A stretch of DNA of 14,377 nucleotides from a virus (IMGVR_UViG_2675903352_000015:1-14377), one strand, 5' to 3'. Positions 1 through 14,377 are shown, numbered from the stretch's first letter. Notes: generated by a model from the sequence alone, not told the origin. Numbers and translations are program-made.

Positions 1-750
1 AGCCGGTGACTCCGGATCAACGGCAATGCTGACCACCGTCTTTTCCTGTGGCGGGTTTTGCTGGTGGGCGTGAGGCAGCAGCGCAAGATTTTTTGTGCGC
101 TGCTTCAGTATGCTGGTGGCGGTCTGCTCTCCCGGTACGATGTCGCTTTCGCGGTACACCGAGCGGATTTTTTCCGCACGCAATCCCAGAGAACGACGTA
201 ATACTGCCTCCGGCAATACGTCCGCTACCTGATTGCAGACCGCCCACCAGGATAATTCAGCCAGCGATAACTCCCGCTCCTGTGTACCGTTTATTGCGTG
301 GCGGATGACGTCAATCATCCAGGATGTCAGGTTTTGTTGAGCAAGTTGCCCGAGTGATTCTGAAGTCTGGTCGCGTAACTGATTATCACAGTGCCAGCAC
401 AATACCATCGCGCCGGTACCGTAACGATGTATGACGGTTTCACTGTGGTGGTAGTCACCATGAGGCCACTGGCAGGATTTAACATGGCGTAACAGCCAGT
501 CAGACAATGCGCCAGCGCCGCCAGCAGCACGAATCACCCGCTCATCGCTGAAAAATGGCAGTAATGATTTATCTTCCGCGAGCGGCTGGCGCACGGCAGG
601 AACAGCTCCTGACGGCAGACCGCGCATGCTTTTCGGTTCCGGCTCCACCAGCACCCGGGGATTATGAAATACCTGCATGGATTCACGGCCCGGCTTAAGG
701 ACCACCAGCCCGAGTTCCGGTACCAGAACAGGTCGAAGTAATATCCGCAC
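1..750 (-). CDS. hypothetical protein, N-terminal part only (gene continues beyond the left edge)
   Basis: Minus-strand frame aligned to plus triplets 1,4,7... has no stop from position 825 down to position 1 (more than 270 codons). Candidate starts are GTG 750..748 (GGAGG 4 nt upstream, 1 nt after the stop of the upstream gene) or ATG 678..676. Translation contains a His/Cys-rich segment (CQWPHGDYHH...LCWHCD). Absent from the ORF track because it is edge-truncated. No family recognised. Confidence 0.4.
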   Translation of the reverse strand, partial: MRILLRPVLVPELGLVVLKPGRESMQVFHNPRVLVEPEPKSMRGLPSGAVPAVRQPLAEDKSLLPFFSDERVIRAAGGAGALSDWLLRHVKSCQWPHGDYHHSETVIHRYGTGAMVLCWHCDNQLRDQTSESLGQLAQQNLTSWMIDVIRHAINGTQERELSLAELSWWAVCNQVADVLPEAVLRRSLGLRAEKIRSVYRESDIVPGEQTATSILKQRTKNLALLPHAHQQNPPQEKTVVSIAVDPESPA

Positions 751-1098: not shown

Positions 1099-1148
1099 TC
1101 TGTTGTCGTCAACAGACAGCGTGCTATCATCGAATAGTGTTCTATACT
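1099..1148 (+). promoter_or_regulatory. putative parDE promoter with palindromic operator
   Basis: Palindrome CTGTTG-tcgt-CAACAG at 1100..1115; candidate -10 hexamers TATCAT 1125..1130 and TATACT 1143..1148 upstream of the ParD start at 1166. ParD antitoxins typically autoregulate through such palindromes. Confidence 0.4.
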
Positions 1149-1165
1149 ACTCTGTGAGGTTTACC

Positions 1166-1423
1166 ATGCGTACAACCCAACAATTCAGCATTACATTAAC
1201 TAACGAGATGGCTGACATGGTGCGCGCCCGTGTGGCTTCCGGTGCCTATGCTTCAGAAAGTGAGGTCATTCGTGAAGGGCTTCGCGCACTGAATGAGCGC
1301 GATAAAGCAATCGAAGAGTGGTTAACGCATTCAGTCGCCCCCTCTCTTGATTCTATCCGCGAAAATCCAAGCAACGGACGCTCCATTTCACAGGTTCGCG
1401 CCGCGATTCGATCCGGAAAGTAA
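1166..1423 (+). CDS. parD: ParD-family antitoxin (ribbon-helix-helix)
   Basis: 85-aa product from ATG 1166 (GAGG 7 nt upstream); sequence ...MADMVRARVASGAYASESEVIREGLRALNERDKAIEEWL is typical of RHH ParD antitoxins; immediately followed by a ParE-like gene. The ORF-track start at 1103 is an unlikely N-terminal extension. Confidence 0.8.
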   Translation: MRTTQQFSITLTNEMADMVRARVASGAYASESEVIREGLRALNERDKAIEEWLTHSVAPSLDSIRENPSNGRSISQVRAAIRSGK

Positions 1424-1428
1424 TCTGC

Positions 1429-1740
1429 ATGACATATGAAGTCATCATTACTCCTGAGGCCGAACAACAAATAATCAACATGCACAGATATATAACTGAG
1501 AAAGCAGGGAACGTCATTGCTGACAATTATGCCAATGCACTTCTTGATTATCTTGATGGGTTTTCTACATTCCCGCATCGGGGCAATAAACGCGATGATA
1601 TTCGCCAGGGGATGCGGGTAACTCATTTCCGCCACAGAACGATTATTGCTTTTGCCGTTGATGACAATAAAGTTTTTATCGCAGGCGTATACCACGGTGG
1701 GCAAATCTATGAAACCGATTTTTTATCCAGTGCACCGTAA
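1429..1740 (+). CDS. parE: ParE/RelE-family toxin
   Basis: 103 aa; starts 5 nt after the parD stop; C-terminal part (THFRHRTIIAFAVDDNKVFIAGVYHGGQ) matches the ParE/RelE fold pattern; canonical antitoxin-then-toxin order. Confidence 0.8.
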   Translation: MTYEVIITPEAEQQIINMHRYITEKAGNVIADNYANALLDYLDGFSTFPHRGNKRDDIRQGMRVTHFRHRTIIAFAVDDNKVFIAGVYHGGQIYETDFLSSAP

Positions 1741-1780: not shown

Positions 1781-2863
1781 TCATTTTCTCTGGCTGATCT
1801 TTACCGGATAACCATCCCGAAGATCAATTAAGTGCTCCGGTTCAGAAGCAAACCATGCATAAGATCCCCACGCCAATTCTGGTATTGCCTTTTTAAAAGG
1901 CAGAGCACTTCTGTCAATAAATGCCGTAAGGAATGCAAGATTTTTCTCGCTGAACCCAGCGTCAATAGCCAAATGAGTGAGAGTAACTTTTCGTTCCCTG
2001 TTTATAGGCCCATCTGTCGCAACTACCTCAGTGAAAACTACAAGCATATCCGAACCCGTTCGGTCCTCTCCCAAATCAATCAAAATAATATCTGGAAGTG
2101 CTTTTGAGGCATCAATATTCAGCCCCAATGCTTTTGCCAATACATCATCCTGAGCAACAACTTTATTCCCAGATTCAGACAACCAGAGCACAGTTGGATT
2201 CTTAAGAAAATTAGGAGCAAAAACTTCGATGACGGCCTTAGCTATTGTACTTGACGGGCCCGGAGCTAAAGTTCTCTTCTCTCCATTTGGGAAAGTGACG
2301 ACTACGGCATCAGCAGCAATCACTGCCCCTGATTTCAATAAACGCAATCTAGCAAGAGCGGCTTTGTTCAAATGATTTTCCTGCCAGGAACTTATTGCAC
2401 TCAGCAGCGAATCTCCTTCAAGCCCAGCATCAAAGAGTGCTGCAAAAGAGCGATTCAAACTGTAACGAGGATGAGAGGATGTGGTGGGTATACCTTTACG
2501 CTCAACAATTGCATTGCAAGGTATTAGGCCATTTTTTATAGTTTCATCACGTATTGGCTCACGCGTATTTTCCGCATACCATGCATCAGCAGGCCTTATC
2601 TTTTGTTTAGAGAAAGTCATCTTTACCCAACTTTCTCTGGACGCATCATCAGTAAGAGCAGCCTGTGAATCTCCCATACTTACAACCTGGCTGGGCCTTA
2701 TCCATCGCCCCAGCCCCTCAACCGCACCAGCATAAAACATGACAAAAATTGTTTTTGCAGCTATTTCCCGAATTAAATATCCACGATTCTCAGTCCCTTC
2801 AGGGAAAATTAATGGTAATCTTTCCCGGATAACATTCAATGGGGGAACAACAGGCAGATTCAT
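1781..2863 (-). CDS. putative type II restriction endonuclease (resembles BsuBI/PstI family, from memory)
   Basis: 360-aa ORF directly downstream of the methyltransferase on the same strand, with ATGA start/stop overlap at 2860..2863; AT-rich composition; size and context match REases paired with Eco57I/PstI-type methyltransferases. Family assignment is from recollection only. Confidence 0.6.
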   Translation of the reverse strand: MNLPVVPPLNVIRERLPLIFPEGTENRGYLIREIAAKTIFVMFYAGAVEGLGRWIRPSQVVSMGDSQAALTDDASRESWVKMTFSKQKIRPADAWYAENTREPIRDETIKNGLIPCNAIVERKGIPTTSSHPRYSLNRSFAALFDAGLEGDSLLSAISSWQENHLNKAALARLRLLKSGAVIAADAVVVTFPNGEKRTLAPGPSSTIAKAVIEVFAPNFLKNPTVLWLSESGNKVVAQDDVLAKALGLNIDASKALPDIILIDLGEDRTGSDMLVVFTEVVATDGPINRERKVTLTHLAIDAGFSEKNLAFLTAFIDRSALPFKKAIPELAWGSYAWFASEPEHLIDLRDGYPVKISQRK

Positions 2864-4692
2864 GCAATCATCACTCCATAGAAACCAGCGATAGTTCTCT
2901 CAATAATCCGTCTGTGGACGCCGGCATCAATTAACGATTGAATCTCCATCACCTGCTCCAGAGAAGGCAACGGGATTGAATTCAATTCATAGGCCGAAAC
3001 AGCAACACTTCCGCTTATACACCTGAACGCCCGATCGACAACATGCGAATTAAGTAGCATATCAATAACATCAGGGCGAACCGCAGAGAACAATCCGTTT
3101 GAATACACAATATTAATATGGTTTTCAACTACTACGCCACCAGTTTCATCTATAAATCCCTGAGGTAAAATCGCAGCTAAAATCCTTCTGTCCTGCTCCT
3201 TCGATGTTGTCCGCTGAACAAGCACACATTCAGATTTTGTCACAAGGAAACCCTGTTGTGGGGTTATATCGATATAGGGAACATGATTTTTTCTGTCTGC
3301 GCTAAAACGGAAACCAGCTGAAGTTATTGATTCCGCCCAGACTAATGGATAGCTATTTTTTCCTTTCGTCGTACGCAACTGCGACTTAAATCGATTCCAG
3401 ACTAACTGACCTGTAGAGACTGAGTATCCCAGATCAGCTAAACGCGTAGACATCTGTTTTAATACATTAAGAAAACAAGCATCATCTTTAACTCGTGGCA
3501 AAAGCCACGTTGCTCCACCTTTTTCTATATCAACATTACCTATTTTCTCAATTTTTGCTTTGTTCAACCCCTTAGGGACAAGTGAGGATACCTGGGCCCG
3601 AACTTTATGTTCTCCCGCCTTGAATGCTGTCAACATTGTTTCCTGGAGAACATCGTCAAAGACCCCATCCCTGTCAGCGACGAAATCAAGGGCATACGGA
3701 GTAGTTTTTTCGGTCAAAAGGGTTCGCAGCGCGGTGAAATACTGCCCACCAAGAAAAGAAGTTGGCGTAAGAAATGCAATAACTCCTGTTTTCTCTTTAA
3801 CCATGCGAACAGCTAAGTCGGTGAACAATCCATATAGATTTGCATGACCAAATAACGAACGAGAATATTTTTCTCTCGTTTTAATATCGAGAGTGACACG
3901 TCCGTAAGGCGGATTCCCTACCACAAGATCATAACCAGAAATTTTATCTTGCTGAAGCGCATCAGCAACAATAATTGTATCTTCAGGCAATCTACGTTTT
4001 ACCTTTACACATAGTGGCATTAGTACAGATTCGAGCAATACCAAACTCATCCAAGCCGCAAATGGATCGATTTCTATCCCCTTTAAACGACGACTGATTC
4101 TCCTCAACATCCATTCAGGGGAAGACCCCTTGTCTTTTTTTAACATTCGAATGGCTACTGGTGCCAAAAATGCACCGCCACCACACGCAGGATCAATAAC
4201 CGATGCATGAGAAAAATCAACACCAGACTTTTCAGCCAGGTCCAAGAGACGCGCTACCAAAGGTGGGGGGGTATAGTAAGCCCCCAATTCCGAACGGTAA
4301 GCGGATGGCAGCATTACCGTATAAATTGACCCAATCAGATATCCAGCGTCCTCCGCCGGAAATTGAGCAATAAGCTCACCTGTTCGTTCAGCGAGCTCGC
4401 GTGCATCACATGGAATGTCTTCTATGTAAACAGTGTGCGGTACTGCCCTCATTTTAATGCTGCTTTTTTGCTTTTTTGCAAGGGTATCCCAATATGCAGC
4501 TACGATGCTGAAGCAGTATGAGCGGGCATGCATCAACCTTGACTGCCCGGTTTTGTAATTGCCCGCATAACCTTTGGCCATGGCTTTACAAGTTTGATAT
4601 CTTTCCAGATTAGAAAACTCATTATCTGTAAAAAAATCAAAATGTTGCACATTCATAATGTAAAATCCTAATGTATCAAACATGCGGGCCAT
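2860..4692 (-). CDS. gamma-class N6-adenine DNA methyltransferase (Eco57I/PstI-like modification subunit)
   Basis: 610 aa; motif X GAYYTPP, motif I DPACGGGAFL (SAM binding), motif IV NPPYGRV in gamma-class order. Start choice is uncertain (ATG 4692 with weak SD; internal ATG at MNVQHF has an AGGA upstream). Confidence 0.85.
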   Translation of the reverse strand: MARMFDTLGFYIMNVQHFDFFTDNEFSNLERYQTCKAMAKGYAGNYKTGQSRLMHARSYCFSIVAAYWDTLAKKQKSSIKMRAVPHTVYIEDIPCDARELAERTGELIAQFPAEDAGYLIGSIYTVMLPSAYRSELGAYYTPPPLVARLLDLAEKSGVDFSHASVIDPACGGGAFLAPVAIRMLKKDKGSSPEWMLRRISRRLKGIEIDPFAAWMSLVLLESVLMPLCVKVKRRLPEDTIIVADALQQDKISGYDLVVGNPPYGRVTLDIKTREKYSRSLFGHANLYGLFTDLAVRMVKEKTGVIAFLTPTSFLGGQYFTALRTLLTEKTTPYALDFVADRDGVFDDVLQETMLTAFKAGEHKVRAQVSSLVPKGLNKAKIEKIGNVDIEKGGATWLLPRVKDDACFLNVLKQMSTRLADLGYSVSTGQLVWNRFKSQLRTTKGKNSYPLVWAESITSAGFRFSADRKNHVPYIDITPQQGFLVTKSECVLVQRTTSKEQDRRILAAILPQGFIDETGGVVVENHINIVYSNGLFSAVRPDVIDMLLNSHVVDRAFRCISGSVAVSAYELNSIPLPSLEQVMEIQSLIDAGVHRRIIERTIAGFYGVMIA

Positions 4693-5783: not shown

Positions 5784-6749
5784 TTACCCCCTGAAGCCCG
5801 GCGGAATTTCGTTATCCGGTTCAGAAATGTGATTCACGCAACGCTGTACAGGCGAACGCCCCAGACGAATAACCAGCTCATCCCATTTTTCGCGAAGCTT
5901 TGACGGGCTCATGACGTTTTTTACCCAGAATGGATCCCGCTGTACCCGACCAAACATTTCGCAAATTTGTCTGTGAGTTCTGCCATCCAGCATCCGCATT
6001 GTGCGCACATCATTGGCCCATGCAGTCCAGTTTGGTTCTTTCGGTCGCATGATTTCGCCATCATCGCTGGCAGCCTGCTCGTAAAGACTCACGATTCGCC
6101 CCCAGATCCACTGCGCACACGCCAAATCTTCCTGGCTGCCCCACTGGCGTTTTTTCGCACTGAACACAACAGCGTCAGGGTGTCGGGTTAAAAAATCCTG
6201 TTCAGCCGTCTGCCTGTCCGGTTGCGAAGATTCCGGACGAGAAGTGTTTTTATTCTCTGTAGTAATCTCTGTTGTATTCTCTGTAAGATCATCGGGCCAT
6301 TTTGACCCGATGACATTGGGTCGTTTTGAACCAATGGAGCGTGTCATTTTGGCTCCTTCCATCGTGTCATTTTGACCTGATGGAGCGGCGCATTTTGACA
6401 TGATGGATTCGCTCACTTTGCCACCATCTAAAAGCTCGCTCTCGTAATTAATCGTGTAAAAATTAGTCATATCACGCTTTGATTTGTTGAGCTTTTCACA
6501 ACGCAAAAGCCCCAGCGTTTTCAGACTTGCAAATGCGCGTTTTAACGTTGACTCTGACCAGAAAGGGAACTGTTCCAGCCATTGTTCTGTTGTGTTATAA
6601 ATCCAGCGAACACCATCACATTCCATGCCGGAACCGGTATCTCTCAACCAGTAATGCAGCTGCTGCAACACGATGGCTTCGTTCAGACCAATTTTCATCG
6701 CCAGCTGCGTGTTTATAACCAGCGGGCGTTCAGCAAAAAGGAGCTTCAT
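5784..6749 (-). CDS. phage replication initiation protein (lambda O / Rac YdaU-like replisome organiser)
   Basis: 321 aa; strong SD (GGGGGAGGGG) before ATG 6749; follows the Cro-like and YdaT-like genes in the rightward-operon position; an iteron array and AT-rich repeats lie inside the central linker of the gene, as in lambda O/ori. Confidence 0.65.
   Translation of the reverse strand: MKLLFAERPLVINTQLAMKIGLNEAIVLQQLHYWLRDTGSGMECDGVRWIYNTTEQWLEQFPFWSESTLKRAFASLKTLGLLRCEKLNKSKRDMTNFYTINYESELLDGGKVSESIMSKCAAPSGQNDTMEGAKMTRSIGSKRPNVIGSKWPDDLTENTTEITTENKNTSRPESSQPDRQTAEQDFLTRHPDAVVFSAKKRQWGSQEDLACAQWIWGRIVSLYEQAASDDGEIMRPKEPNWTAWANDVRTMRMLDGRTHRQICEMFGRVQRDPFWVKNVMSPSKLREKWDELVIRLGRSPVQRCVNHISEPDNEIPPGFRG
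6250..6430. repeat. putative replication origin: six 23-bp-spaced iterons plus three tandem 12-bp AT-rich repeats
   Basis: TTTTG cores at 6300, 6324, 6347, 6370, 6393 and (CTTTG) 6416, unit consensus about GTCATTTTGACCnGATGGAG; adjacent TATTCTCTGTAG-like 12-mers with TCTCTGT at 6254, 6266, 6278. Confidence 0.6.
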
Positions 6750-6770
6750 CCCCTCCCCCAGAACACGTTA

Positions 6771-7196
6771 TCAATGCGCCACCACGGCATTTCCCGCCGG
6801 ACCACCACGATTCATCTGATTGAAACCAGCAATTACCACCGCGACAAGTTCATCAGCGTCTCTCACCAGTCGTTCATGCGTATCCACCAGTTCCCGAAAA
6901 TAATCGGAACTGTGGCTGCGCATCCAGGCCACCAGCGGAGGTGGCATTGCCTTTTCGATCGCTGGTAACAAAGCCTGAATTTTTTTAACCGCATCAGGGG
7001 TGTCTTTCTCCACCCAGCGGAAAATTTTCTGAGTATTGCGAGCCAGGGCTTCCGGATGGCTGTCGTCATACAGTTCCGGGAATGTCATACCCAGCTCAAA
7101 ATAAGCCCGGGTTATTTCAGCTGCCGGAACTTTTTCACCGTCCGGACGCGCCCAGGCATTCATCGCCATGCGGATGTGTTCATGCTTGATTTTCAT
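6771..7196 (-). CDS. YdaT-like protein (Rac prophage family; role assignment from context)
   Basis: 141 aa; overlaps the end of the upstream Cro-like gene by 17 bp; SD GGGGA upstream; position and size match Rac ydaT. Confidence 0.5.
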   Translation of the reverse strand: MKIKHEHIRMAMNAWARPDGEKVPAAEITRAYFELGMTFPELYDDSHPEALARNTQKIFRWVEKDTPDAVKKIQALLPAIEKAMPPPLVAWMRSHSSDYFRELVDTHERLVRDADELVAVVIAGFNQMNRGGPAGNAVVAH

Positions 7197-7452
7197 GAAT
7201 CATCCCCGGTGTATTTGGTGTGTTAACTTTACATCCAACAGGTAAACCGTCGGTTGGGTTAGGATAAATATCAGGGCGAATTTCATGCGGGGTAACTTCC
7301 CACTTCATTAGCTGGCATAACGGAATTACCTGCTTTGGGGGAACACCAAAGCTAAACCATTGCCAAACAGTCTGTTGAGCAACTCCCATATAACGACCTA
7401 TTTCAGCTTGAGTGTGTTTCTGCCTAATTTTTTCGCGAGTGCTATCTAGCAT
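7180..7452 (-). CDS. Cro/YdaS-like HTH transcriptional regulator
   Basis: 90 aa; strong SD (GAGGAGGG) before ATG 7452; HTH segment TQAEIGRYMGVAQQTVWQW; divergent from the repressor gene across an operator-bearing intergenic region. Confidence 0.65.
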   Translation of the reverse strand: MLDSTREKIRQKHTQAEIGRYMGVAQQTVWQWFSFGVPPKQVIPLCQLMKWEVTPHEIRPDIYPNPTDGLPVGCKVNTPNTPGMIHENQA

Positions 7453-7481
7453 TTTGCCCTCCTCTAAAAAACTATAAGCAA

Positions 7482-7523
7482 ATCCTACAATAAAAAACTG
7501 TATGCGATCAACAGTTTTTTATT
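7482..7523 (-). promoter_or_regulatory. pR-like promoter with operator palindrome O1 (AAAAACTGT-N9-ACAGTTTTT)
   Basis: Perfect 13-bp inverted repeat AATAAAAAACTGT (7489..7501) / ACAGTTTTTTATT (7511..7523); on the minus strand TTGATC (-35, 7511..7506), 18-bp spacer, TAGGAT (-10, 7487..7482) upstream of the Cro-like gene. Confidence 0.5.
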
Positions 7524-7561
7524 GTGATGCTTTTAACAGTATTTGCCTGTAAAATTGGAAA

Positions 7562-7963
7562 ATGATGAACGCCCTAGAAGTATCTATGTACAGAATCAGC
7601 AAGCTTCTTCAGGAAACTGGATGGAGCCAGGCTGAGCTTGCCCGTAGAATTGGTGTGACACAGCAAACTGTTCAACAATGGGTCAGCGGTAAGGCAACAC
7701 CTAAAGCCTCAAGTTTGGATAAACTGGTTGAGGTTACAGGGCATCCATTGCATTGGTTTTTATTGCCTCCTGAAGAGAGGGAGCAAATTTTCACCCCTGA
7801 TACGATGAAAATTGGTCCTCGCCAACGCGAACTGCTCCAAGCTTTTAGTGCGTTTCCTGAGGAAGACCAGGAAAAAATGCTTCAAGAAATCAAAGACAAG
7901 AAAAAATCAATGGAAGAAACCATTGCCCGATGGTTAGCGGCACAAAAAAGCCGCCTGGCGTGA
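7562..7963 (+). CDS. CI/RacR-like prophage repressor (XRE-family HTH, no S24 peptidase domain)
   Basis: 133 aa; HTH SQAELARRIGVTQQTVQQWVSGKATP; sits between the two operator-bearing divergent promoters in the same arrangement as lambda cI; no C-terminal Ser/Lys autocleavage motif recognised. Confidence 0.7.
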   Translation: MMNALEVSMYRISKLLQETGWSQAELARRIGVTQQTVQQWVSGKATPKASSLDKLVEVTGHPLHWFLLPPEEREQIFTPDTMKIGPRQRELLQAFSAFPEEDQEKMLQEIKDKKKSMEETIARWLAAQKSRLA

Positions 7964-7990
7964 CCACTGAACAAGAAGAGGAGTTATGCC

Positions 7991-8068
7991 ATGAGTACAG
8001 CCCTTTCTCCGATAGTTTCAGAATTCGAAACAACCGAACAAGAAGACAGTTATAACTTCAAGCATTGA
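7991..8068 (+). CDS. possible small ORF (25 aa, acidic) downstream of the repressor
   Basis: ATG 7991 preceded by GAGGAG with a 7-nt spacer; MSTALSPIVSEFETTEQEDSYNFKH; lies between the repressor stop and the terminator. Could be non-coding. Confidence 0.25.
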   Translation: MSTALSPIVSEFETTEQEDSYNFKH

Positions 8069-8133
8069 AATTGCAAATATTGTGCATGCCCGACGACAAT
8101 TTACCTTCTCTATCTAAGCAGAACAATTTTCAT

Positions 8134-8159
8134 ACTCCCTCATTCGAGGGAGTTTTTTT
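8134..8159 (+). terminator. rho-independent terminator ending the repressor transcript
   Basis: 8-bp stem ACTCCCTC / GAGGGAGT with ATTC loop followed by TTTTTT (8154..8159); U-run present only for the plus-strand transcript. Confidence 0.65.
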
Positions 8160-8173
8160 GCCTAAACCAACAA

Positions 8174-8213
8174 TTAAAAACTGTTGACACAAAACAGTTT
8201 TTAATTGTAGATT
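8174..8213 (+). promoter_or_regulatory. pL-like promoter with operator palindrome O2
   Basis: TTGACA (8184..8189), 18-bp spacer, TAGATT (8208..8213); perfect 12-bp inverted repeat TTAAAAACTGTT (8174..8185) / AACAGTTTTTAA (8193..8204) overlapping the -35; same CTGT-N9-ACAG core as O1. Confidence 0.55.
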
Positions 8214-8224
8214 ATTTTCACCAA

Positions 8225-8237
8225 CCCCCCCCCCCCC
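8225..8237. repeat. homopolymeric C13 tract
   Basis: Thirteen consecutive C at 8225..8237, starting about 12 bp downstream of the pL-like -10 hexamer, in the transcript start/5' leader region. Confidence 0.9.
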
Positions 8238-8389
8238 ACAGAACGCCGGGCAATACTTCGAGTTACCCGGCAGTGGTCAGGGGTTAAGTAGCCAGCCCGA
8301 GGCGTAAGAACATGACGGCAGGGTTCAACTTTAACTATGCAGCAGGTTTTTGTTCCGCTACCCCGGCGTTAAGGGGAAATGAGGTCAAC

Positions 8390-8545
8390 ATGGATACTAT
8401 CGATCTTGGCAACAACGAATCTCTGGTGTGCGGCGTGTTCCCAAACCAGGACGGCACATTCACCGCGATGACGTATACCAAAAGCAAAATGTTTAAAACC
8501 GAAAATGGTGCCCGTCGCTGGCTGGAAAGAAACTCAGGTGAGTGA
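8390..8545 (+). CDS. small prophage protein (51 aa; resembles Rac/Qin YdaF/YdfA-type proteins from memory)
   Basis: ATG 8390 with GAGG 5 nt upstream; an in-frame upstream ATG at 8312 (GAGG 9 nt upstream) would give 77 aa, so the start is ambiguous. Confidence 0.5.
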   Translation: MDTIDLGNNESLVCGVFPNQDGTFTAMTYTKSKMFKTENGARRWLERNSGE

Positions 8546-8546
8546 T

Positions 8547-8675
8547 ATGGATTTCGACACAATCATGGAAAAGGCTTACGAAGAATACTTCGAAGGCCTT
8601 GCCGAAGGCGAAGAGGCTCTCAGCTTCAGTGAGTTTAAACAGGCGCTTTCCAGCCCGGCAAAATCTAACGGCTGA
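8547..8675 (+). CDS. small acidic protein (42 aa)
   Basis: ATG 8547 one nt after the preceding stop (coupled); MDFDTIMEKAYEEYFEGLAEGEEALSFSEFKQALSSPAKSNG. The ORF-track alternative (GTG 8542, other frame, Arg-rich low complexity) looks less protein-like. Confidence 0.4.
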   Translation: MDFDTIMEKAYEEYFEGLAEGEEALSFSEFKQALSSPAKSNG

Positions 8676-8704
8676 TAAGCGAAGCAGCACCGCGAGGAAT
8701 CAGT

Positions 8705-8923
8705 ATGCAGAAACGAGAACCCGTCATCATCGCGCCAGACTATACCGATGATGAACTTTATGAGTGGATGCACCAGAAAATTAAGGCAGCGCAGGACCTG
8801 AAATGGGCCAATGAAGCCATGGCTAAGCAGGCCGAAAATCTGTCTGCTCTGGAAAAAGATATTACCAATCTGGAAAAAGCAGCGGCATTAAGCATTGCCA
8901 GAATGATTACATACCCACGTTAA
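8705..8923 (+). CDS. hypothetical helical protein (72 aa)
   Basis: ATG 8705 with GAGGA 6 nt upstream; heptad-like, probably coiled-coil sequence; no family recognised. Confidence 0.5.
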   Translation: MQKREPVIIAPDYTDDELYEWMHQKIKAAQDLKWANEAMAKQAENLSALEKDITNLEKAAALSIARMITYPR

Positions 8924-8945
8924 TAGCTAACCAACGAGGCTAATA

Positions 8946-9353
8946 ATGGAATTTAAAGATTTACCAAAAGAAATCCAGACAATTGCTGCAACGACTCTCG
9001 GTGATAGTCTGGTGAAAATTGACCCGGCATACACCAAAAAAGAAACCATCGATAATATGGTTCGTAATGTGCGCAATGCTTTTTCTGGGCTATATGGTTC
9101 TGATAATCAAAAGCAGGAAAGCGATGTTAATAAACGGGTAATTTCTGTTTGCGTGAATGGCCATGTTCTTTCATCAATCAAAACAGAAACGGCGACAGTC
9201 TTCGATTGCCTTTGCATTGTACAGAGCCTTGTTGATGCCCTGTTTCGTTCAGTGAATTTAGAAAATGATGCAAATCTGCGAGGGCGCACAATAGCACATC
9301 CATATGCACATACTTTAGGCTCTGTGGATATCAAAGATCCCACAAATCTTTAA
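8946..9353 (+). CDS. hypothetical protein (135 aa) in an AT-rich accessory insert
   Basis: ATG 8946 with GAGG 8 nt upstream; visibly AT-richer than flanking prophage genes; no transmembrane segment or known motif recognised. Confidence 0.55.
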   Translation: MEFKDLPKEIQTIAATTLGDSLVKIDPAYTKKETIDNMVRNVRNAFSGLYGSDNQKQESDVNKRVISVCVNGHVLSSIKTETATVFDCLCIVQSLVDALFRSVNLENDANLRGRTIAHPYAHTLGSVDIKDPTNL

Positions 9354-9564
9354 TGAAATAGTTAACGCGAATTGTACTTGCTCTTTCAGTTGCTTTCAGA
9401 ATACGCGTTGAAACTGCTGGCGGTAATTTGGTATTCCATTTATTAAAATCATGCCCGGGAAAGTACTCTTCGAAAATACTTTTAACTGCAGACTCGCCTA
9501 TTGAAATGCTGCTTACCATGCGATTTTGATAAAGGCATTTAGCAATAAGAGTTGATTTTAACAT
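9331..9564 (-). CDS. hypothetical protein (77 aa), convergent with and overlapping the 3' end of the 135-aa gene
   Basis: ATG 9564..9562 preceded by AGGAGG (spacer GTGA) on the minus strand; AT-rich; 3' end overlaps the convergent gene by 23 bp. Confidence 0.45.
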   Translation of the reverse strand: MLKSTLIAKCLYQNRMVSSISIGESAVKSIFEEYFPGHDFNKWNTKLPPAVSTRILKATERASTIRVNYFIKDLWDL

Positions 9565-9957
9565 TCACCCTCCTGAGGGTTGGTAATTAAGGAGTTCTCC
9601 ACGGGTGAAATGGAGTGCGTGCGCCGGACACGGGTGAACATCCGGCACTGACAGTTTACTGAAAGGATATTTCTCTGAAAAGTCAGAGCATAACGCGAAA
9701 GCGCACGGCGAGGTTGCTGGTTCATAGATAGCCTGTCGTTAAATTTTCGTCGACCGTGCGCTTCCGGTTGTGGCACTCCGCGAAATGGCGCGGCGGTAAG
9801 TATGGCGGGGTTATTCCTTCCCCCGTTGAGGACACCGGGTTGTCAGGTTGACCATACGCTTAAGTGACAACCCCGCTGCAACGCCCTCTGTTATCAATTT
9901 TCTGTGACGTTTGGCGGCATCTGTTTGCCCATGAACTGATGTCCGCCCTTTTTAAAG

Positions 9958-10105
9958 TGAATTTTGTGATGCGGTGAATGCGGCTAAGCGCACGCGGAAC
10001 AGTTAAAGCTAAAAACAGTGTTATGGGTGGATTCTCTGTATCCGGCGTTAATTGTTAACTGGTTAACGTCACCTGGAGGCACCAGGCACCGCATCACAAA
10101 ATTCA
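9958..10105. repeat. 19-bp perfect inverted repeat pair flanking a 110-bp segment
   Basis: TGAATTTTGTGATGCGGTG at 9958..9976 and its exact reverse complement at 10087..10105; right arm ends 4 nt before the GAGGA SD of the ORF starting at 10123; internal segment contains GTTAAC-tg-GTTAAC. Confidence 0.85.
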
Positions 10106-10122
10106 TTGTTGAGGACGCGATA

Positions 10123-10311
10123 ATGGAAACGTTATTACCAAACGTTAATACGTCTGAAGGTTGTTTTGAAATTGGTGTCACTATCAGCAATCAGATATTT
10201 ACTGAAGATGCCATTAATAAAAGAAAACACGAACAGGAACTGCTAAATAAAATATGCATTGTTTCGATGCTGGCCCGTTTACGTCTGATGCAAACAGGAT
10301 GCAGGCAATGA
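10123..10311 (+). CDS. hypothetical small protein (62 aa) in the kil-region position
   Basis: ATG 10123 with GAGGA 7 nt upstream; the ORF-track GTG 10018 start would read through the inverted-repeat arm and is less likely. Confidence 0.4.
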   Translation: METLLPNVNTSEGCFEIGVTISNQIFTEDAINKRKHEQELLNKICIVSMLARLRLMQTGCRQ

Positions 10312-10406
10312 ATACGGCATTTGTACTCGTTCTGACTGTTTTTTTGTTTCTGGTGAACCGATTGATCTTGTTATTGACATACATGACTCAATGGAAGAAT
10401 GCATGA
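10308..10406 (+). CDS. possible hydrophobic micro-protein (32 aa, single predicted TM helix)
   Basis: ATG 10308 overlaps the upstream TGA (ATGA coupling); MNTAFVLVLTVFLFLVNRLILLLTYMTQWKNA. Below the length cut-off of the ORF track. Confidence 0.3.
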   Translation: MNTAFVLVLTVFLFLVNRLILLLTYMTQWKNA

Positions 10407-10498
10407 CTGCCGCGGCAGAGCAAAAAATTCCCGGGAACTGTTATCCTGTCGACAAAATTATTCGCATGAACAATAACGAAATCCCGGCAGGCCTTTAA
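10403..10498 (+). CDS. possible micro-ORF (31 aa; 35 aa if started at ATG 10391)
   Basis: ATG 10403 overlaps the preceding TGA (second consecutive ATGA coupling); MTAAAEQKIPGNCYPVDKIIRMNNNEIPAGL. Confidence 0.25.
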   Translation: MTAAAEQKIPGNCYPVDKIIRMNNNEIPAGL

Positions 10499-10590
10499 AA
10501 CAGCCCCATAATAAATATCCGGTTTTATTTTTATATGTCAGCAATGGCAGGGATTTGTCCACCCTTAAATCTGTAATGAGGTAAAACAAA

Positions 10591-13071
10591 ATGAGTAAAG
10601 TCTTTATTTGCGCCGCCATTCCGGACGAACAGGCAACAGCAGAAGGCGCCAAACCTGTGGCCACTGCCATTGAAGCAGGCGACGAACGCCGGGCAAGAGC
10701 CAAATTTAGCTGGTTATTTCTGGAACAATACCCGGAAGCTCAGGACTGTGCTTATAAATTTCTTGTCTGCGAGGATAAACCCGGCATGGCCCGCCCTGCT
10801 CTCGATTCCTGGGATTCCGAATATATGCAGGAAAACCGCTGGAATGAGGAGTCGGCTTCCTTTGTTCCGGTCGACCCTGAACCGGACGCAGAAATTGTTA
10901 ACTTTAATCAGTTATCTGACGACAAGCGGGCTGCTGTCCTTGTCAGGTTCGGTACACATGAAAACATCACCGTGGATATGGTCATCAATGCAAGCGGGCT
11001 TCTCGGCGATGACGAGATGACGACTTTTGATGGACACCTCGCTGAAGCAATTATCCGGACCAGAGAAATTAACGCCATGTATCCAGAGCGTCAGATTGAG
11101 TACATCAACGATGCCAGACGTGATTTAAAACCAACAGCCAAATGGCCCGACGTTCAGGCGTATTTTCTCGAACGTAAAAAACGCATGGAAAAGGAGCGCA
11201 AAGAAGGTGGCGCATATAATTCCGTCGTCGATCTTGCCCGCGCCAGAGTCAACCGGCAAGGCACTGAAAACTCTGCAGGAAAAACTGACTCCGTAACTGC
11301 TGTCATTCGTCGCGAATACAGGCAGACATGGAAAACACTGGATGAAGAACTGGCCTACGCTTTCTGGCCTGGTGATATTGATGCCGGAAACATTGACGGC
11401 AGCATCCATCGCTGGGCAAAAAATGAAGTTATCGACAAAGATCGCGAAGACTGGAAGCGTATTTCCGCATCAATGCGCAAACAACCTGATGCCGTTCGCT
11501 ACGACCGTCAGACTATTTTTGGCCTTGTCCGTGAGCGTCCGATCGACATTCACAAAGATCCCGTGGCGCTGAACAAATACATCACTGAATACCTGGCGAC
11601 AAAGGGCGTGTTTGAGGATGAAGAAACAGACCAGAGCACTGCTGATATTCTCCAGCCGTCAGCAGCACAAACTGATGCAGTGGAAACTGAAGTATCTGAT
11701 ACCCAAAAAAATGAAAGCGCGCTGGAAACTGAACCATCTGTAGAGCGTGAGGGGCCGTTCTACTTCCTCTTCACCGATAAGGATGGCGAAAAATATGGTC
11801 GTGCAAACAAACTTTCTGGTCTGAATAAGGCGCTGGCTGCAGGGGCTACTGAAATCACGAAAGAAGAATATTTTGCCCGTAAAAACGGCACGTACTCAGG
11901 TTCACAACAAAATACTGGTGCATCTGACACGACCGCACAACCAGAGCCGGTAAAAGTTACCGCTGACGAAGTAAACAAAATTATGCAGGCAGCCAATATC
12001 AGCCAGCCTGACGCCGATAAGTTGCTTGCTGCCTCTCGCGGAGAATTTGTTGCAGGGATTAGCGACCCGAATGATCCGAAATGGGTGAAGGGGATTGAAA
12101 CCCGCGATTCTGTAAACCAGAACCAGCAAGAATCGGAACAGAACGACCAGAAAGCGGAACAAAACAGTCAAAATGCGTTACAAAACGAGCCAGAAACGAA
12201 ACAACCTGAGGCAGTAGCGCAACAGGAACCGGAAAAAGTCTGCACCGCCTGCGGTCAGAGCGGTGGCGGCAACTGCCCTGATTGTGGCGCGGTGATGGGC
12301 GACGCAACATACCAGGAAACATTCGATGAAGAGAATCAGGTTGAAGTTCAGGAAAATGATCCGGAGGAAATGGAAGGCGCTGAACATCCACACAAGGAGA
12401 ATGCTGGCAGCGCTCAGGACCACGCCAGCGATAATGAAACTGGTGAGACGGCAGATCCCTTAATTGTGGTGAACGGTCATCACGTTATCACATCCACCAG
12501 CAGAGTGTGGTACCACCTGATGATCGACCTTGAAACAATGGGAACCAACACCAATGCGCCCATCGTGGTTATTGGTGCGGTTTTCTTCGACCCACAAACA
12601 GGGGAAATCGGGCCAGTATTTTATATCGTTATCAGTCTGACTGACGCAATGAATACAGGGGCTGCTCCTGACGGTGGAACCATCAAATGGTGGCTGAAGC
12701 AGTCCAGTGAAGCCAGAGCTGCCATTTTAACAGACCAGGTAAAACTGAAGGATGCCCTTTCGCGGTTTCGGGAGTTCATCAACGAATACTCAGATGAAAA
12801 ATTCGTTCAGGTATGGGGTAATGGTGCAACTTTCGATAACGCAATTTTGCGCACCTCATACGAACGTCTGGACATCCCCTGCCCGTGGCGCTACCACAAC
12901 GATCGCGATGTACGCACAATCGTTGAGCTGGGAAAAACAATCGACTTTGATGCTAGAACCGTTATTCCATTCGAAGGCGTTCGCCACAATGCACTGGATG
13001 ACGCCCGTCACCAGGCAAAATACGTTTCAGCAATCTGGCAAAAACTGATCCCGAATCCGGTTGATTTTTAA
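10591..13071 (+). CDS. RecE-like prophage exonuclease: RecE-type N-terminal/central region and Cys4 zinc ribbon fused to a DnaQ-like DEDDh 3'-5' exonuclease domain
   Basis: 826 aa; GAGGT 8 nt upstream. Segment DKLLAASRGEFVAGISDPNDPKWVKGI...CTACGQSGGGNCPDCGAVMGDATYQETFDEE closely matches Rac RecE as I recall it. C-terminus has DEDDh motifs: MIDLETMG (D646, E648), WGNGATFDNAIL (D749), HNALDDARH (H799, D803/D804). Confidence 0.8.
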   Translation: MSKVFICAAIPDEQATAEGAKPVATAIEAGDERRARAKFSWLFLEQYPEAQDCAYKFLVCEDKPGMARPALDSWDSEYMQENRWNEESASFVPVDPEPDAEIVNFNQLSDDKRAAVLVRFGTHENITVDMVINASGLLGDDEMTTFDGHLAEAIIRTREINAMYPERQIEYINDARRDLKPTAKWPDVQAYFLERKKRMEKERKEGGAYNSVVDLARARVNRQGTENSAGKTDSVTAVIRREYRQTWKTLDEELAYAFWPGDIDAGNIDGSIHRWAKNEVIDKDREDWKRISASMRKQPDAVRYDRQTIFGLVRERPIDIHKDPVALNKYITEYLATKGVFEDEETDQSTADILQPSAAQTDAVETEVSDTQKNESALETEPSVEREGPFYFLFTDKDGEKYGRANKLSGLNKALAAGATEITKEEYFARKNGTYSGSQQNTGASDTTAQPEPVKVTADEVNKIMQAANISQPDADKLLAASRGEFVAGISDPNDPKWVKGIETRDSVNQNQQESEQNDQKAEQNSQNALQNEPETKQPEAVAQQEPEKVCTACGQSGGGNCPDCGAVMGDATYQETFDEENQVEVQENDPEEMEGAEHPHKENAGSAQDHASDNETGETADPLIVVNGHHVITSTSRVWYHLMIDLETMGTNTNAPIVVIGAVFFDPQTGEIGPVFYIVISLTDAMNTGAAPDGGTIKWWLKQSSEARAAILTDQVKLKDALSRFREFINEYSDEKFVQVWGNGATFDNAILRTSYERLDIPCPWRYHNDRDVRTIVELGKTIDFDARTVIPFEGVRHNALDDARHQAKYVSAIWQKLIPNPVDF

Positions 13072-13137
13072 TGTTCAACCCTGATCGCCGTCTCCGAATT
13101 ATATTGGCGGCGGTCATGCTGTAAGGCACGTGACCAC

Positions 13138-13389
13138 ATGTACGAATTAACTCTATCGCCAGCAGAGATTCAAGAGATCACGAAATACGAGCGATACACA
13201 AAACAGCAACACCAGTTAAGGCTGCACGGTATCCCATTTGTAATCGGTCCTAAAAACGAACCAATAGTTCTTCGCAGGGATATTCCACACGGACTGACTA
13301 CGATGCCAAAAGCACCTGAACTAGTTTCCGCTGAACCCGATTTTGAGGCGCTGAACAATGGGAAGACCAAGAAAAAACAAAAAAGATAA
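13138..13389 (+). CDS. xis: excisionase (lambda Xis-like)
   Basis: 83 aa; N-terminus MYELTL and lysine-rich C-terminus NNGKTKKKQKR resemble lambda Xis (MYLTL...NGKKAKS) from memory; overlaps the integrase start by 32 bp as in lambda. Confidence 0.55.
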   Translation: MYELTLSPAEIQEITKYERYTKQQHQLRLHGIPFVIGPKNEPIVLRRDIPHGLTTMPKAPELVSAEPDFEALNNGKTKKKQKR

Positions 13390-14377
13390 TGCACTACCAC
13401 CGCGTGTTAGATCGAATGGTTACAGTTACGTGTGGAAACCCGAAGGAAGCACAAGAACTATAGGGCTCGGAAGAGTACGGGAAACCAGCGTAGCTAAAGT
13501 CTGGCAAAATTATGAACTGGAAAAAGCAAAACTCCACAACATAATGACCGTCGCTAAATTATGGCACATGTTTATGGACTCCCCTGCATTTACAGAACTG
13601 GCACCCCGAACCCAAAAAGATTATCGACAACATCAGAGGGCGTTGCTGGCGGTATTCGGTAAAGTGCTTGCTGATAATGTAAAAATTGAGCAAGTAAGAA
13701 TTTTCATGGATAAGCGGGGACTTGAGAGCAAGACCCAGGCAAACCATGAGCTGGCAAGCCTGAGTCGCGTATACGGATGGGGATATGAGCGTGGGTATGT
13801 GAAAAATAATCCATGCAAAGGCGTCAGAAAATTCACGCTTAAAGCCCGCACTGTTTACATAACCGATGAACAGTATGCGGCGATATACGCGGAAGCAATT
13901 CCACAGTTACGCATTGCAATGGAGATTTCCTATCTTTGTGCGGCAAGGCTCGGTGATGTTCTCGAGCTGAAATGGCAGGATATTATGGATAAAGGGATCT
14001 ACATTGAGCAAAACAAAACAGGCACCAAACAAATCAAGGAATGGTCTCCGCGATTACGTACGGCGATCCAGTTAGCCCGAAATGTATCTTCCGGCATATG
14101 CGGGTATGTGATCAGCACAACCAAAGGCGGGAAAGTCATCGCTAAAACGCTGAACAACTGGTGGAATCAGGCTAAACGCGCAGCCGAGCAAAAAGCAGGC
14201 GTTCCGTTCGGATGTAATTTTCATGACATAAAAGCCAAAGGGATTTCAGATTATGAAGGCAGCAGCCGCGACAAACAAATTTTCAGTGGGCATAAAACAG
14301 AAAACCAGGTGTTGATTTATGATCGCAAAACAAAAATCACCCCAACACTGGATTTGCCGCTTGTGGTCAGTAAGTAG
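13358..14377 (+). CDS. int: tyrosine integrase, lambda Int family
   Basis: 339 aa; N-terminal MGRPRK...LPP...NGY like lambda Int; box I Arg (AARLGDVLELKW); box II FHDIK...SGHK...LIYDRK with candidate catalytic Tyr; stop codon TAG is the last three bases of the window. Confidence 0.9.
   Translation: MGRPRKNKKDNALPPRVRSNGYSYVWKPEGSTRTIGLGRVRETSVAKVWQNYELEKAKLHNIMTVAKLWHMFMDSPAFTELAPRTQKDYRQHQRALLAVFGKVLADNVKIEQVRIFMDKRGLESKTQANHELASLSRVYGWGYERGYVKNNPCKGVRKFTLKARTVYITDEQYAAIYAEAIPQLRIAMEISYLCAARLGDVLELKWQDIMDKGIYIEQNKTGTKQIKEWSPRLRTAIQLARNVSSGICGYVISTTKGGKVIAKTLNNWWNQAKRAAEQKAGVPFGCNFHDIKAKGISDYEGSSRDKQIFSGHKTENQVLIYDRKTKITPTLDLPLVVSK

Follow-up and report, generated by a model that had tools for sequence, protein, structure and literature searches.

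The window studied here, a stretch of 14,377 nucleotides of viral DNA (IMGVR_UViG_2675903352_000015:1-14377), carries on its plus strand, at 10591-13071, a gene for a protein of 826 amino acids (aa), which an earlier interpretation made from the DNA alone, the sequence-only reading, had taken for a RecE-like exonuclease with a swapped catalytic domain and no RecT partner. Our comparisons identify the product, as far as sequence can tell, as YdfE in its intact form rather than as RecE with a new tail, and the whole gene as the intact counterpart of ydfE, a pseudogene of the Qin prophage of Escherichia coli K-12. The overall explanation that we consider best, and to which we give a somewhat better than even chance, is that intact YdfE is a multi-domain early protein of Qin/Rac-type lambdoid prophages, working as an exonuclease of the DEDDh type without an annealase.

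The open reading frame (ORF) at 10591-13071 is genuine, with an ATG start and GAGG 8 nt upstream, and its product is laid out in five modules, for which AlphaFold2 (AF2) models were made of the full protein, on an alignment of 50 sequences, and of aa 1-470 separately. The N-terminal YdfE_N scaffold (D1 and D2, aa 1-205, 10591-11205, plus strand like all modules) combines a small alpha/beta domain (aa 1-95) with a helical domain (aa 101-205), predicted with local distance difference test scores (pLDDT) of about 81-95 and of 82-95, respectively. It is followed by a helical domain, D3 (aa 241-344, 11311-11622, pLDDT 89-96), by a beta-hairpin/helix domain, D4 (aa 385-437, 11743-11901, pLDDT 79-92), which bears the motif GPFY...GRANK...EI.KEEY.ARK.G, and by an acidic, glutamine-rich linker (aa 438-640, 11902-12510), mostly predicted to be disordered, with a pLDDT mostly of 25-50 and of up to 69 in short helices at aa 458-482. 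Embedded in this acidic, glutamine-rich stretch is a zinc-ribbon-like Cys4 motif, CTACGQSGGGNCPDC (12241-12285), read directly as C551-x2-C554...C562-x2-C565; its region was modelled without confidence, and the motif is kept in 120 of 120 close homologues but in 14 of 150 cluster representatives. The protein ends in the DEDDh 3'-5' exonuclease domain (aa 641-826, 12511-13068), with D646, E648, D749, H799 and D804 as predicted catalytic residues, and AF2 gave this domain a DnaQ-like fold (aa 641-823) with pLDDT 71-94 per 10-residue block, mostly above 80. Separate translation of the domain from M644, the equivalent of the methionine at which the E. coli DexA homologue EcD starts, was also considered and set aside, as no Shine-Dalgarno sequence is visible upstream.

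Compared with RecE of the K-12 Rac prophage, only aa 262-626 could be aligned by BLASTP (RecE 278-592, 39% identity in a gapped alignment), and an identity of roughly 80% is confined to aa ~474-626 (nt 12010-12468) against RecE 454-592, a segment that includes the Cys4 motif and that, going by the AF2 model, would be mainly a disordered linker. At the DNA level, the match to recE is limited to nt 1425-1877 of the gene (77%). D3 is the module most widely common to YdfE-type and RecE-type proteins, being mapped by phmmer in proteins with YdfE_N as well as in proteins with RecE_N, and in BLASTP it aligns weakly to RecE 278-345; nothing in K-12 RecE matches D4. Over aa 1-256, the protein instead resembles the product of the Qin pseudogene, with 67% identity. 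The match of the N-terminal and central part to Rac RecE that the sequence-only reading had proposed thus holds for the acidic linker with its Cys4 motif and fails for aa 1-256, and its swapped RecE is better described as a domain-swapped relative of RecE in which the first 256 residues belong to a different scaffold, YdfE_N.

The similarity to RecE stops at aa 626/627, corresponding to RecE 592/593, and we regard this as the swap point; it is also where the minimal active fragment of RecE begins, which we take to extend from about residue 588/606 to 866. The nuclease of RecE is a PD-(D/E)XK domain, PF12684, at aa 615-850. PF12684 was not found in the 826-aa protein, and neither BLASTP nor phmmer matched RecE 593-866, so that the alignment to RecE and the domain scan, which the sequence-only reading had named as checks, bear out its view that the C-terminus is not a PD-(D/E)XK nuclease. 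Likewise, PF06630 (Exonuc_VIII), which lies at aa 2-178 in RecE and in the homologue P0130, gave no hit at E<=1 in the 826-aa protein, and the NCBIfam RecE equivalog NF007259 failed (280 bits against a cut-off of 1269, with model positions 263-603 of 877 matched). Proteins of this kind are frequently mislabelled 'exonuclease VIII' because PF06630 and the RecE equivalog cover non-catalytic parts of RecE.

In place of the RecE nuclease, the C-terminus carries the DEDDh motifs that had been noticed in the bare sequence. PF16473, the Rv2179c-like 3'-5' exonuclease domain, matches aa 642-816 with an E value of 1.7e-69 (233.5 bits against a cut-off of 27), covering profile positions 2-177 of 177, and the motif set is complete, with D646/E648 in DLET, D749 in FD and H799-x4-D804 in HNALDD. 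Of 112 full-length close homologues, 107 have kept the catalytic motifs intact. A Foldseek search with the AF2 model returned only DEDDh enzymes as top matches in the PDB, and T4 DexA, which itself scores in PF16473, was the best PDB match both by sequence (E 8e-8) and by fold (E 1e-7, TM 0.62-0.71). The catalytic residues of DexA align with D646/E648, D749 and H799/D804, apart from a shift by MAFFT at H-x4-D. DexA is a 3'-5' DNA exonuclease that prefers single-stranded DNA (ssDNA) and takes part in the breakdown of host DNA and in intron homing (PMC12153337).

The identification with ydfE is further supported by the position of the gene. Gene order in the window equals that of K-12 Qin, ydfABC-dicF-dicB-ydfD-ydfE-(IS2)-intQ, as well as that of the isolated phage Tritos, and the gene therefore reads as an intact ydfE that closes the dicBF early-left operon ahead of xis and int. 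The order in Rac, recE-recT-ralR-rcbA-xisR-intR, is as the sequence-only reading had given it, with recT and ralR behind recE, and its observation that the gene of the window runs into xis-int with a gap of 66 bp (13072-13137) was likewise correct. Decayed copies occur as well: in the Shigella flexneri locus L012 (CP182557.1) the gene is broken into several frames at 6298-8735, and in the K-12 locus L003 (7079-7999) it is cut by IS2.

The exchange of the catalytic domain goes along with a difference in gene content. RecT was sought with a hidden Markov model (HMM) built from three RecT sequences and with Pfam, as the divergent RecT of loci L006 and L008 escaped a tblastn search in which K-12 RecT was the sole query. 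Among the loci that we examined, recT always accompanies a PD-(D/E)XK nuclease and never a DEDDh one. recT lies directly downstream in all four PD-(D/E)XK loci, namely the YdfE-scaffold loci L006, L008 and L077 together with Rac (PF03837, E 2e-36 and 3e-44), and is missing from each of the 86 DEDDh loci, which continue with xis and int or end with the contig; these are the window, L001, L004, Tritos, L007, L009-L012 and 77 IMG/VR loci, and a scan of genome contigs yielded 7 Escherichia/Shigella loci. No RecT-family ORF was found in the window by the RecT HMM or Pfam, with L004 and Tritos the RecT HMM yielded nothing at E<=1, the annotation of 30 kb of the related prophage L004, tail genes through int, and of the whole Tritos genome lists no annealase, and Pfam annealase families were absent from the unassigned Tritos proteins and the ORFs of the window. 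Because a DEDDh domain replaces the PD-(D/E)XK nuclease and a RecT partner is missing across the relatives, a RecET-type mechanism is unlikely for this protein, as the sequence-only reading had concluded.

Substitution patterns indicate that the gene is functional, with purifying selection on its folded domains and intact motifs. Against the diverged copies of Tritos, L009, L011 and L010, the ratio of nonsynonymous to synonymous substitution rates (dN/dS) is 0.25-0.30 for the whole gene. It is 0.15-0.17 in the DEDDh domain and 0.04-0.06 in D4, the strongest constraint in the protein, and reaches 0.16-0.37 in D3, 0.24 in D1-D2 and 0.33-0.39 in the linker at aa 438-640 (the latter two against Tritos, L009 and L011), while for the spacer at aa 345-384 three of the four pairs give a value near or above 1. 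In addition, dS differs about five-fold between segments, from about 0.15-0.25 in D3 and the linker to about 1.0-1.1 in D1-D2 and the DEDDh domain, and at the DNA level the similarity to one relative or another begins or ends at aa ~480-500 and at aa 626. These segment-wise dS values and break points point to recombination within the gene. At codon 635, at the junction of linker and DEDDh domain, lies a Chi site, GCTGGTGG (12494-12501, minus strand), which Tritos, L009 and L011 have at the same codon and L007 lacks; the site might have promoted an exchange of segments at the junction.

This mosaic structure extends to the family as a whole. An exhaustive profile search with aa 1-626 retrieved only 232 cluster representatives among 1.84 billion, and these included all four combinations of scaffold and nuclease: YdfE_N with DEDDh (P0121, P0123), RecE_N with DEDDh (P0130, P0137, P0230, P0268), YdfE_N with PD-(D/E)XK (P0132, P0208, P0254) and RecE_N with PD-(D/E)XK (RecE, P0141, P0224 and others). 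P0130 has xis-int next downstream, and in L008 and L006 the YdfE scaffold with PD-(D/E)XK is followed by RecT. In P0268, DLKT and FAN replace DLET and FDN, with the loss of two catalytic residues, and this lineage may represent an inactive DEDDh form. Many scaffold proteins have C-termini without a Pfam domain (ten such proteins were scanned and none matched); they are likely the 'RecE-2' proteins of Zheng et al. We therefore see in these proteins, from their domain composition, a shuffled family in which a common linker connects a YdfE_N or RecE_N scaffold with a C-terminus of the DEDDh, PD-(D/E)XK or unassigned kind.

As to what such a protein might do, we propose that it would be produced on derepression of the prophage early-left operon and would act as an annealase-independent, Mg-dependent 3'-to-5' exonuclease on DNA 3' ends, preferring ssDNA by analogy with DexA. 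Scaffold and linker may tether the nuclease to a DNA structure or a partner that is also used by RecE-type proteins. In the most speculative step, 3' tails would be trimmed so that phage DNA ends become substrates for recombination by the host RecBCD and RecA along the Chi route, and we put forward this role only tentatively, with appreciably less than even confidence. RecBCD requires nearly blunt ends, which host single-strand exonucleases help to supply, and this need, together with the richness in Chi, makes trimming of 3' tails a plausible role. Chi sites in active versus opposite orientation number 12 and 4 in L004 and 9 and 2 in Tritos, and the window, being part of its prophage, holds 6 (4 and 2), where 0.4 were expected from shuffled sequences. 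Zheng et al. (2025; PMC12315714) have defined a class of lambdoid phages, Tritos, as nuclease-positive, annealase-negative, anti-RecBCD-negative and Chi-rich, and the operon of the window shows the make-up of this nuclease-only class, with a nuclease present and annealase, single-stranded DNA-binding protein (SSB) and anti-RecBCD absent. Abundance and orientation bias of Chi fit the Chi-rich, RecBCD-using lifestyle that these authors proposed. Two oppositely oriented pairs of Chi sites were also seen within 650 bp at the GC-rich left end of the window (60-67 and 112-119, plus strand; 645-652 and 702-709, minus strand), in a region that in L004 is a DUF968/YdfU-like gene, and the same layout recurs in L004 (17560, 17612 / 18145, 18202) and in Tritos (38644, 38702 / 39108, 39160).

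In a wider sense, the scaffold and linker of YdfE and RecE could be a general platform that places interchangeable nucleases at DNA ends, with a distinct, undescribed job for the DEDDh version, although we judge this generalization to be improbable. If it were true, the DEDDh version might blunt 3' tails for RecBCD-Chi recombination instead of serving an annealase system of its own, or it might serve prophages widely as a nuclease that attacks incoming or host nucleic acids.

Several observations weigh against an annealase-free DNA exonuclease that supports recombination. The DEDDh loci are phylogenetically non-independent, albeit with several integrase types among them, and the scaffold has no structural relative that points to a partner. 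Nuclease-free phages are also Chi-rich and were proposed to depend on RecBCD likewise, and the usual effect of 3'-5' exonucleases on homologous recombination is inhibitory (Zheng et al. 2025, PMC12315714, the latter citing Lovett 2011). Moreover, the choice of DNA or RNA as substrate and the polarity are inferred by homology, at 22-24% identity to DexA; the fold matches to Orn/REXO2 and RNase T are nearly as good as that to DexA (E 1e-6 versus 1e-7), and PF16473 is named after the exoribonuclease Rv2179c.

These last points lead to an RNA-directed 3'-5' exoribonuclease or oligonucleotidase, which would trim RNA or short oligonucleotides in phage development and possibly remove host signalling or primer molecules. 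Besides the family name and the strong fold matches just mentioned, sources call many homologues '3'-5' exoribonuclease', and there is a weak NCBIfam hit to oligoribonuclease; however, the DNA exonuclease DexA is the best relative by both sequence and fold, the domain takes the place of a DNA exonuclease on a scaffold shared with RecE and in a Rec-module position, and such DEDDh enzymes are often active on DNA and RNA alike, so that the substrate cannot be read from a family name. We regard an RNA substrate as unlikely. Similarly unlikely, in our view, is a role in defence or superinfection exclusion, in which the protein, as a DexA-like nuclease of the 'HREX' kind, would degrade incoming phage DNA, for example the 5-hydroxymethylcytosine (5hmC)-modified DNA of T-even phages, and spare that of the host. 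Membership in the Pfam family of DexA speaks for it, as does the finding that EcD digests T4 DNA and protects cells and that 38% of bacterial DexA homologues come from Escherichia (Kang et al. 2025, PMC12153337), and many accessory and defence-type genes lie in the window (a PstI-like restriction-modification pair, ParE, DicB). Yet the residues for 5hmC recognition are not kept, W152 being replaced by H769 and D169 lying in a DexA insertion that is absent here (both dependent on the alignment), and the tetramer residue D90, which EcD has lost, has its counterpart here in D721; EcD is a distinct protein that stands alone. The gene also sits at the end of a repressed early-left operon without a promoter consensus of its own, PADLOC assigned no defence system and gave only a weak, generic hit to a CRISPR-associated DEDDh protein (E 3.7e-5), and a defence role would leave the 640-aa scaffold in common with RecE unexplained. 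Membership in HREX proper was ruled out by these residues and by the EcD primer sequences.

A further alternative keeps the protein in annealase-dependent recombination, with an unrecognised, distant or host-encoded single-strand annealing protein that would work on single strands of reversed polarity. The sequence-only reading had held that a 3'-5' exonuclease cannot make the overhangs an annealase needs, which is too absolute, as in some lambdoid Rec modules, for example that of epsilon34, genes for DnaQ-type nucleases are packed together with annealase genes (Zheng et al. 2025, PMC12315714), and the present gene does occupy a Rec-module position. We nevertheless find a hidden annealase quite improbable: the searches of L004, Tritos and the window described above were all negative, recT accompanies every PD-(D/E)XK sibling and none of the DEDDh loci, and the early-left operon has no unassigned ORF longer than 135 aa. 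Least probable of all, and by a clear distance from serious consideration, is a decaying remnant, that is, a recE-like gene, deprived of nuclease and partner, that the prophage still carries as a passenger without function. Such decay does occur, as in ydfE of K-12 truncated by IS2, the frameshifted Shigella copy and P0268 with its two missing catalytic residues; the copy of the window, on the other hand, is intact, all its folded domains are under purifying selection, close homologues nearly always retain the catalytic motifs, and the gene is present in viable phages. A pseudogene was ruled out by dN/dS and motif conservation. An intact, annealase-free YdfE thus remains the explanation that we prefer.

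The remainder of the window reads as the early region of a Qin/Rac-type lambdoid prophage, which in related genomes (annotation of H1 and H36) adjoins yccA. A cI/DicA-like repressor gene lies at 7562-7963, and ydaS/ydaT-like genes, an O-like replication gene and a DUF977 gene are found on the opposite strand. From the repressor to the end (7562-14377), the operon content consists only of ydfA/B/C, a 135-aa ORF, DicF, dicB, a ydfD remnant, the exonuclease gene, xis and int. The dicBF early-left genes upstream (8312-10311, plus strand; Pfam DUF1391 and DicB) comprise a ydfA-like DUF1391 gene, ydfC, the 135-aa ORF (8946-9353, plus strand), a DicF-like small RNA (sRNA; 9899-9948, plus strand) and dicB (10123-10311, plus strand; Pfam DicB). 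The DicF-like sRNA scores 41.1 bits, below the Rfam gathering score of 48, and Rfam at gathering threshold has no match in the window; the DNA between ydfC and dicB is 96% identical to that of K-12 Qin, as are the flanks of the sRNA, but the centre of the RNA differs, so its targets may differ, and a sub-threshold STnc100 match follows at 9946-10155. On the opposite strand within the early-left operon, a 77-aa ORF (9331-9564, minus strand) with a full-length match to PHROG 10348 overlaps the end of the 135-aa ORF. The ydfD/DUF1482 gene that separates dicB from the exonuclease gene (~10308-10498, plus strand) is frameshifted in the annotation of the near-identical genomes H1 and H36, and what remains of it in the window is a 50-aa ORF at 10254-10406. 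No sigma-70 consensus promoter was found on the plus strand over 9300-13500, which weakly suggests that the exonuclease gene is co-transcribed with the dicBF operon. Downstream, a xis-like DUF4224 gene (13138-13389, plus strand; PF13986, E 1.8e-9) overlaps by 32 bp with the gene for a tyrosine integrase (13358-14377, plus strand; PF00589).

The early-right region, which has a lower GC content (0.42-0.45), carries a type II restriction-modification pair at 1781-4692 (minus strand), composed of a BsuBI/PstI-family endonuclease (1781-2863) and an N6-adenine methyltransferase (2860-4692), and only some related prophages, such as H37 and H40, have it. Beside these genes, an ORF for a ParE-family toxin (1429-1740, plus strand) and a possible antitoxin ORF just upstream (1103-1423, plus strand) form a toxin-antitoxin-like cassette. 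Tritos (L096) is in effect a viable relative of the cryptic Qin prophage of K-12, with homologues, in Qin order, of ydfABC, DicF, dicB, ydfD, an intact ydfE, hokD, ydfU, cspB, cspI, ydfR, gnsB and ynfN, and may be a convenient system for testing the functions of Qin genes.

Contrary to the novelty that the sequence-only reading implied, the protein is very common and has been catalogued before, and a description of its genomic setting appeared in 2025. By megablast, 4741 of 5426 complete E. coli genomes have a match, with 80% or more of the gene in at least 2100 of them (about 40%), and the best hit, at 99.9% nucleotide identity, is a RefSeq coding sequence named '3'-5' exonuclease'. PHROG 2082 ('exonuclease', a profile of 823 positions) is matched end to end (1-823), and proteins 86-99% identical carry precomputed PF27430 (YdfE_N), PF16473 and PF27432 (YdfE_C), through which we infer membership for the present one. 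DnaQ-type nucleases beside int were described in the survey of 314 lambdoid phages by Zheng et al. (2025; PMC12315714), who consider sporadic int-proximal nucleases to be probably not members of Rec modules. We found no paper in which YdfE or this protein was tested, and a literature search on ydfE together with dicB brought up only incidental mentions. The results settle an annotation problem, in that the many copies that bear the names 'exodeoxyribonuclease VIII', 'RecE' or 'exoribonuclease' do not belong among RecET functions, and they give the K-12 pseudogene ydfE an identity at the level of function. Tritos could be informative on how annealase-less, Chi-rich lambdoid phages handle DNA ends.

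Compared with known systems, the protein resembles Rac RecE (exonuclease VIII, b1350) in its plan, with a big non-catalytic N-terminal part before a C-terminal nuclease and an acidic CxxC...CxxC linker, and differs in the nuclease, which in RecE is of the PD-(D/E)XK type (5'-3') and in the YdfE-type protein of the DEDDh type (3'-5' predicted), in the N-terminus, which is PF06630 in RecE and YdfE_N here, and in the lack of recT, ralR or rcbA downstream. YdfE of K-12 Qin (b1577) and gp27 of Tritos (CAH1234810.1) occupy the same operon slot, ydfABC-dicF-dicB-ydfD-[gene]-xis-int. K-12 ydfE is cut by IS2 after ~256 residues with the loss of everything downstream, whereas gp27, with 823 aa, has the identical five-module layout and 77% aa identity overall, though it is mislabelled 'exonuclease VIII, ds DNA exonuclease' and its phage has a different integrase. 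With T4 DexA (exonuclease A; PDB 8KEL/8KEN) the C-terminal domain shares family PF16473 and all aligned DEDDh catalytic residues; DexA, however, is a stand-alone protein of 227 aa from a virulent phage, without scaffold or linker, and has extra loops, one of them bearing D169, as well as W152 opposite H769. EcD, or 'HREX' (Kang et al. 2025, PMC12153337), is an E. coli DEDDh exonuclease of the DexA family too, but stand-alone, with the termini MIDTET...TIPETY as judged from cloning primers, and without an equivalent of DexA D90, where the YdfE-type protein keeps D721. Rv2179c of M. tuberculosis, the founder of PF16473, shares Pfam family membership, yet it is stand-alone, is described as an exoribonuclease and does not appear among the 50 best Foldseek matches in the PDB. 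Finally, Tritos, the prototype of the class named after it by Zheng et al. (2025; PMC12315714), carries a YdfE-type gene, whose domain architecture and scaffold in common with RecE were not dissected in that study; to their description we add a map of the modules, the identification of the gene with K-12 ydfE, the recognition of the conserved linker as the place of the swap and the strict rule that links nuclease type to recT.

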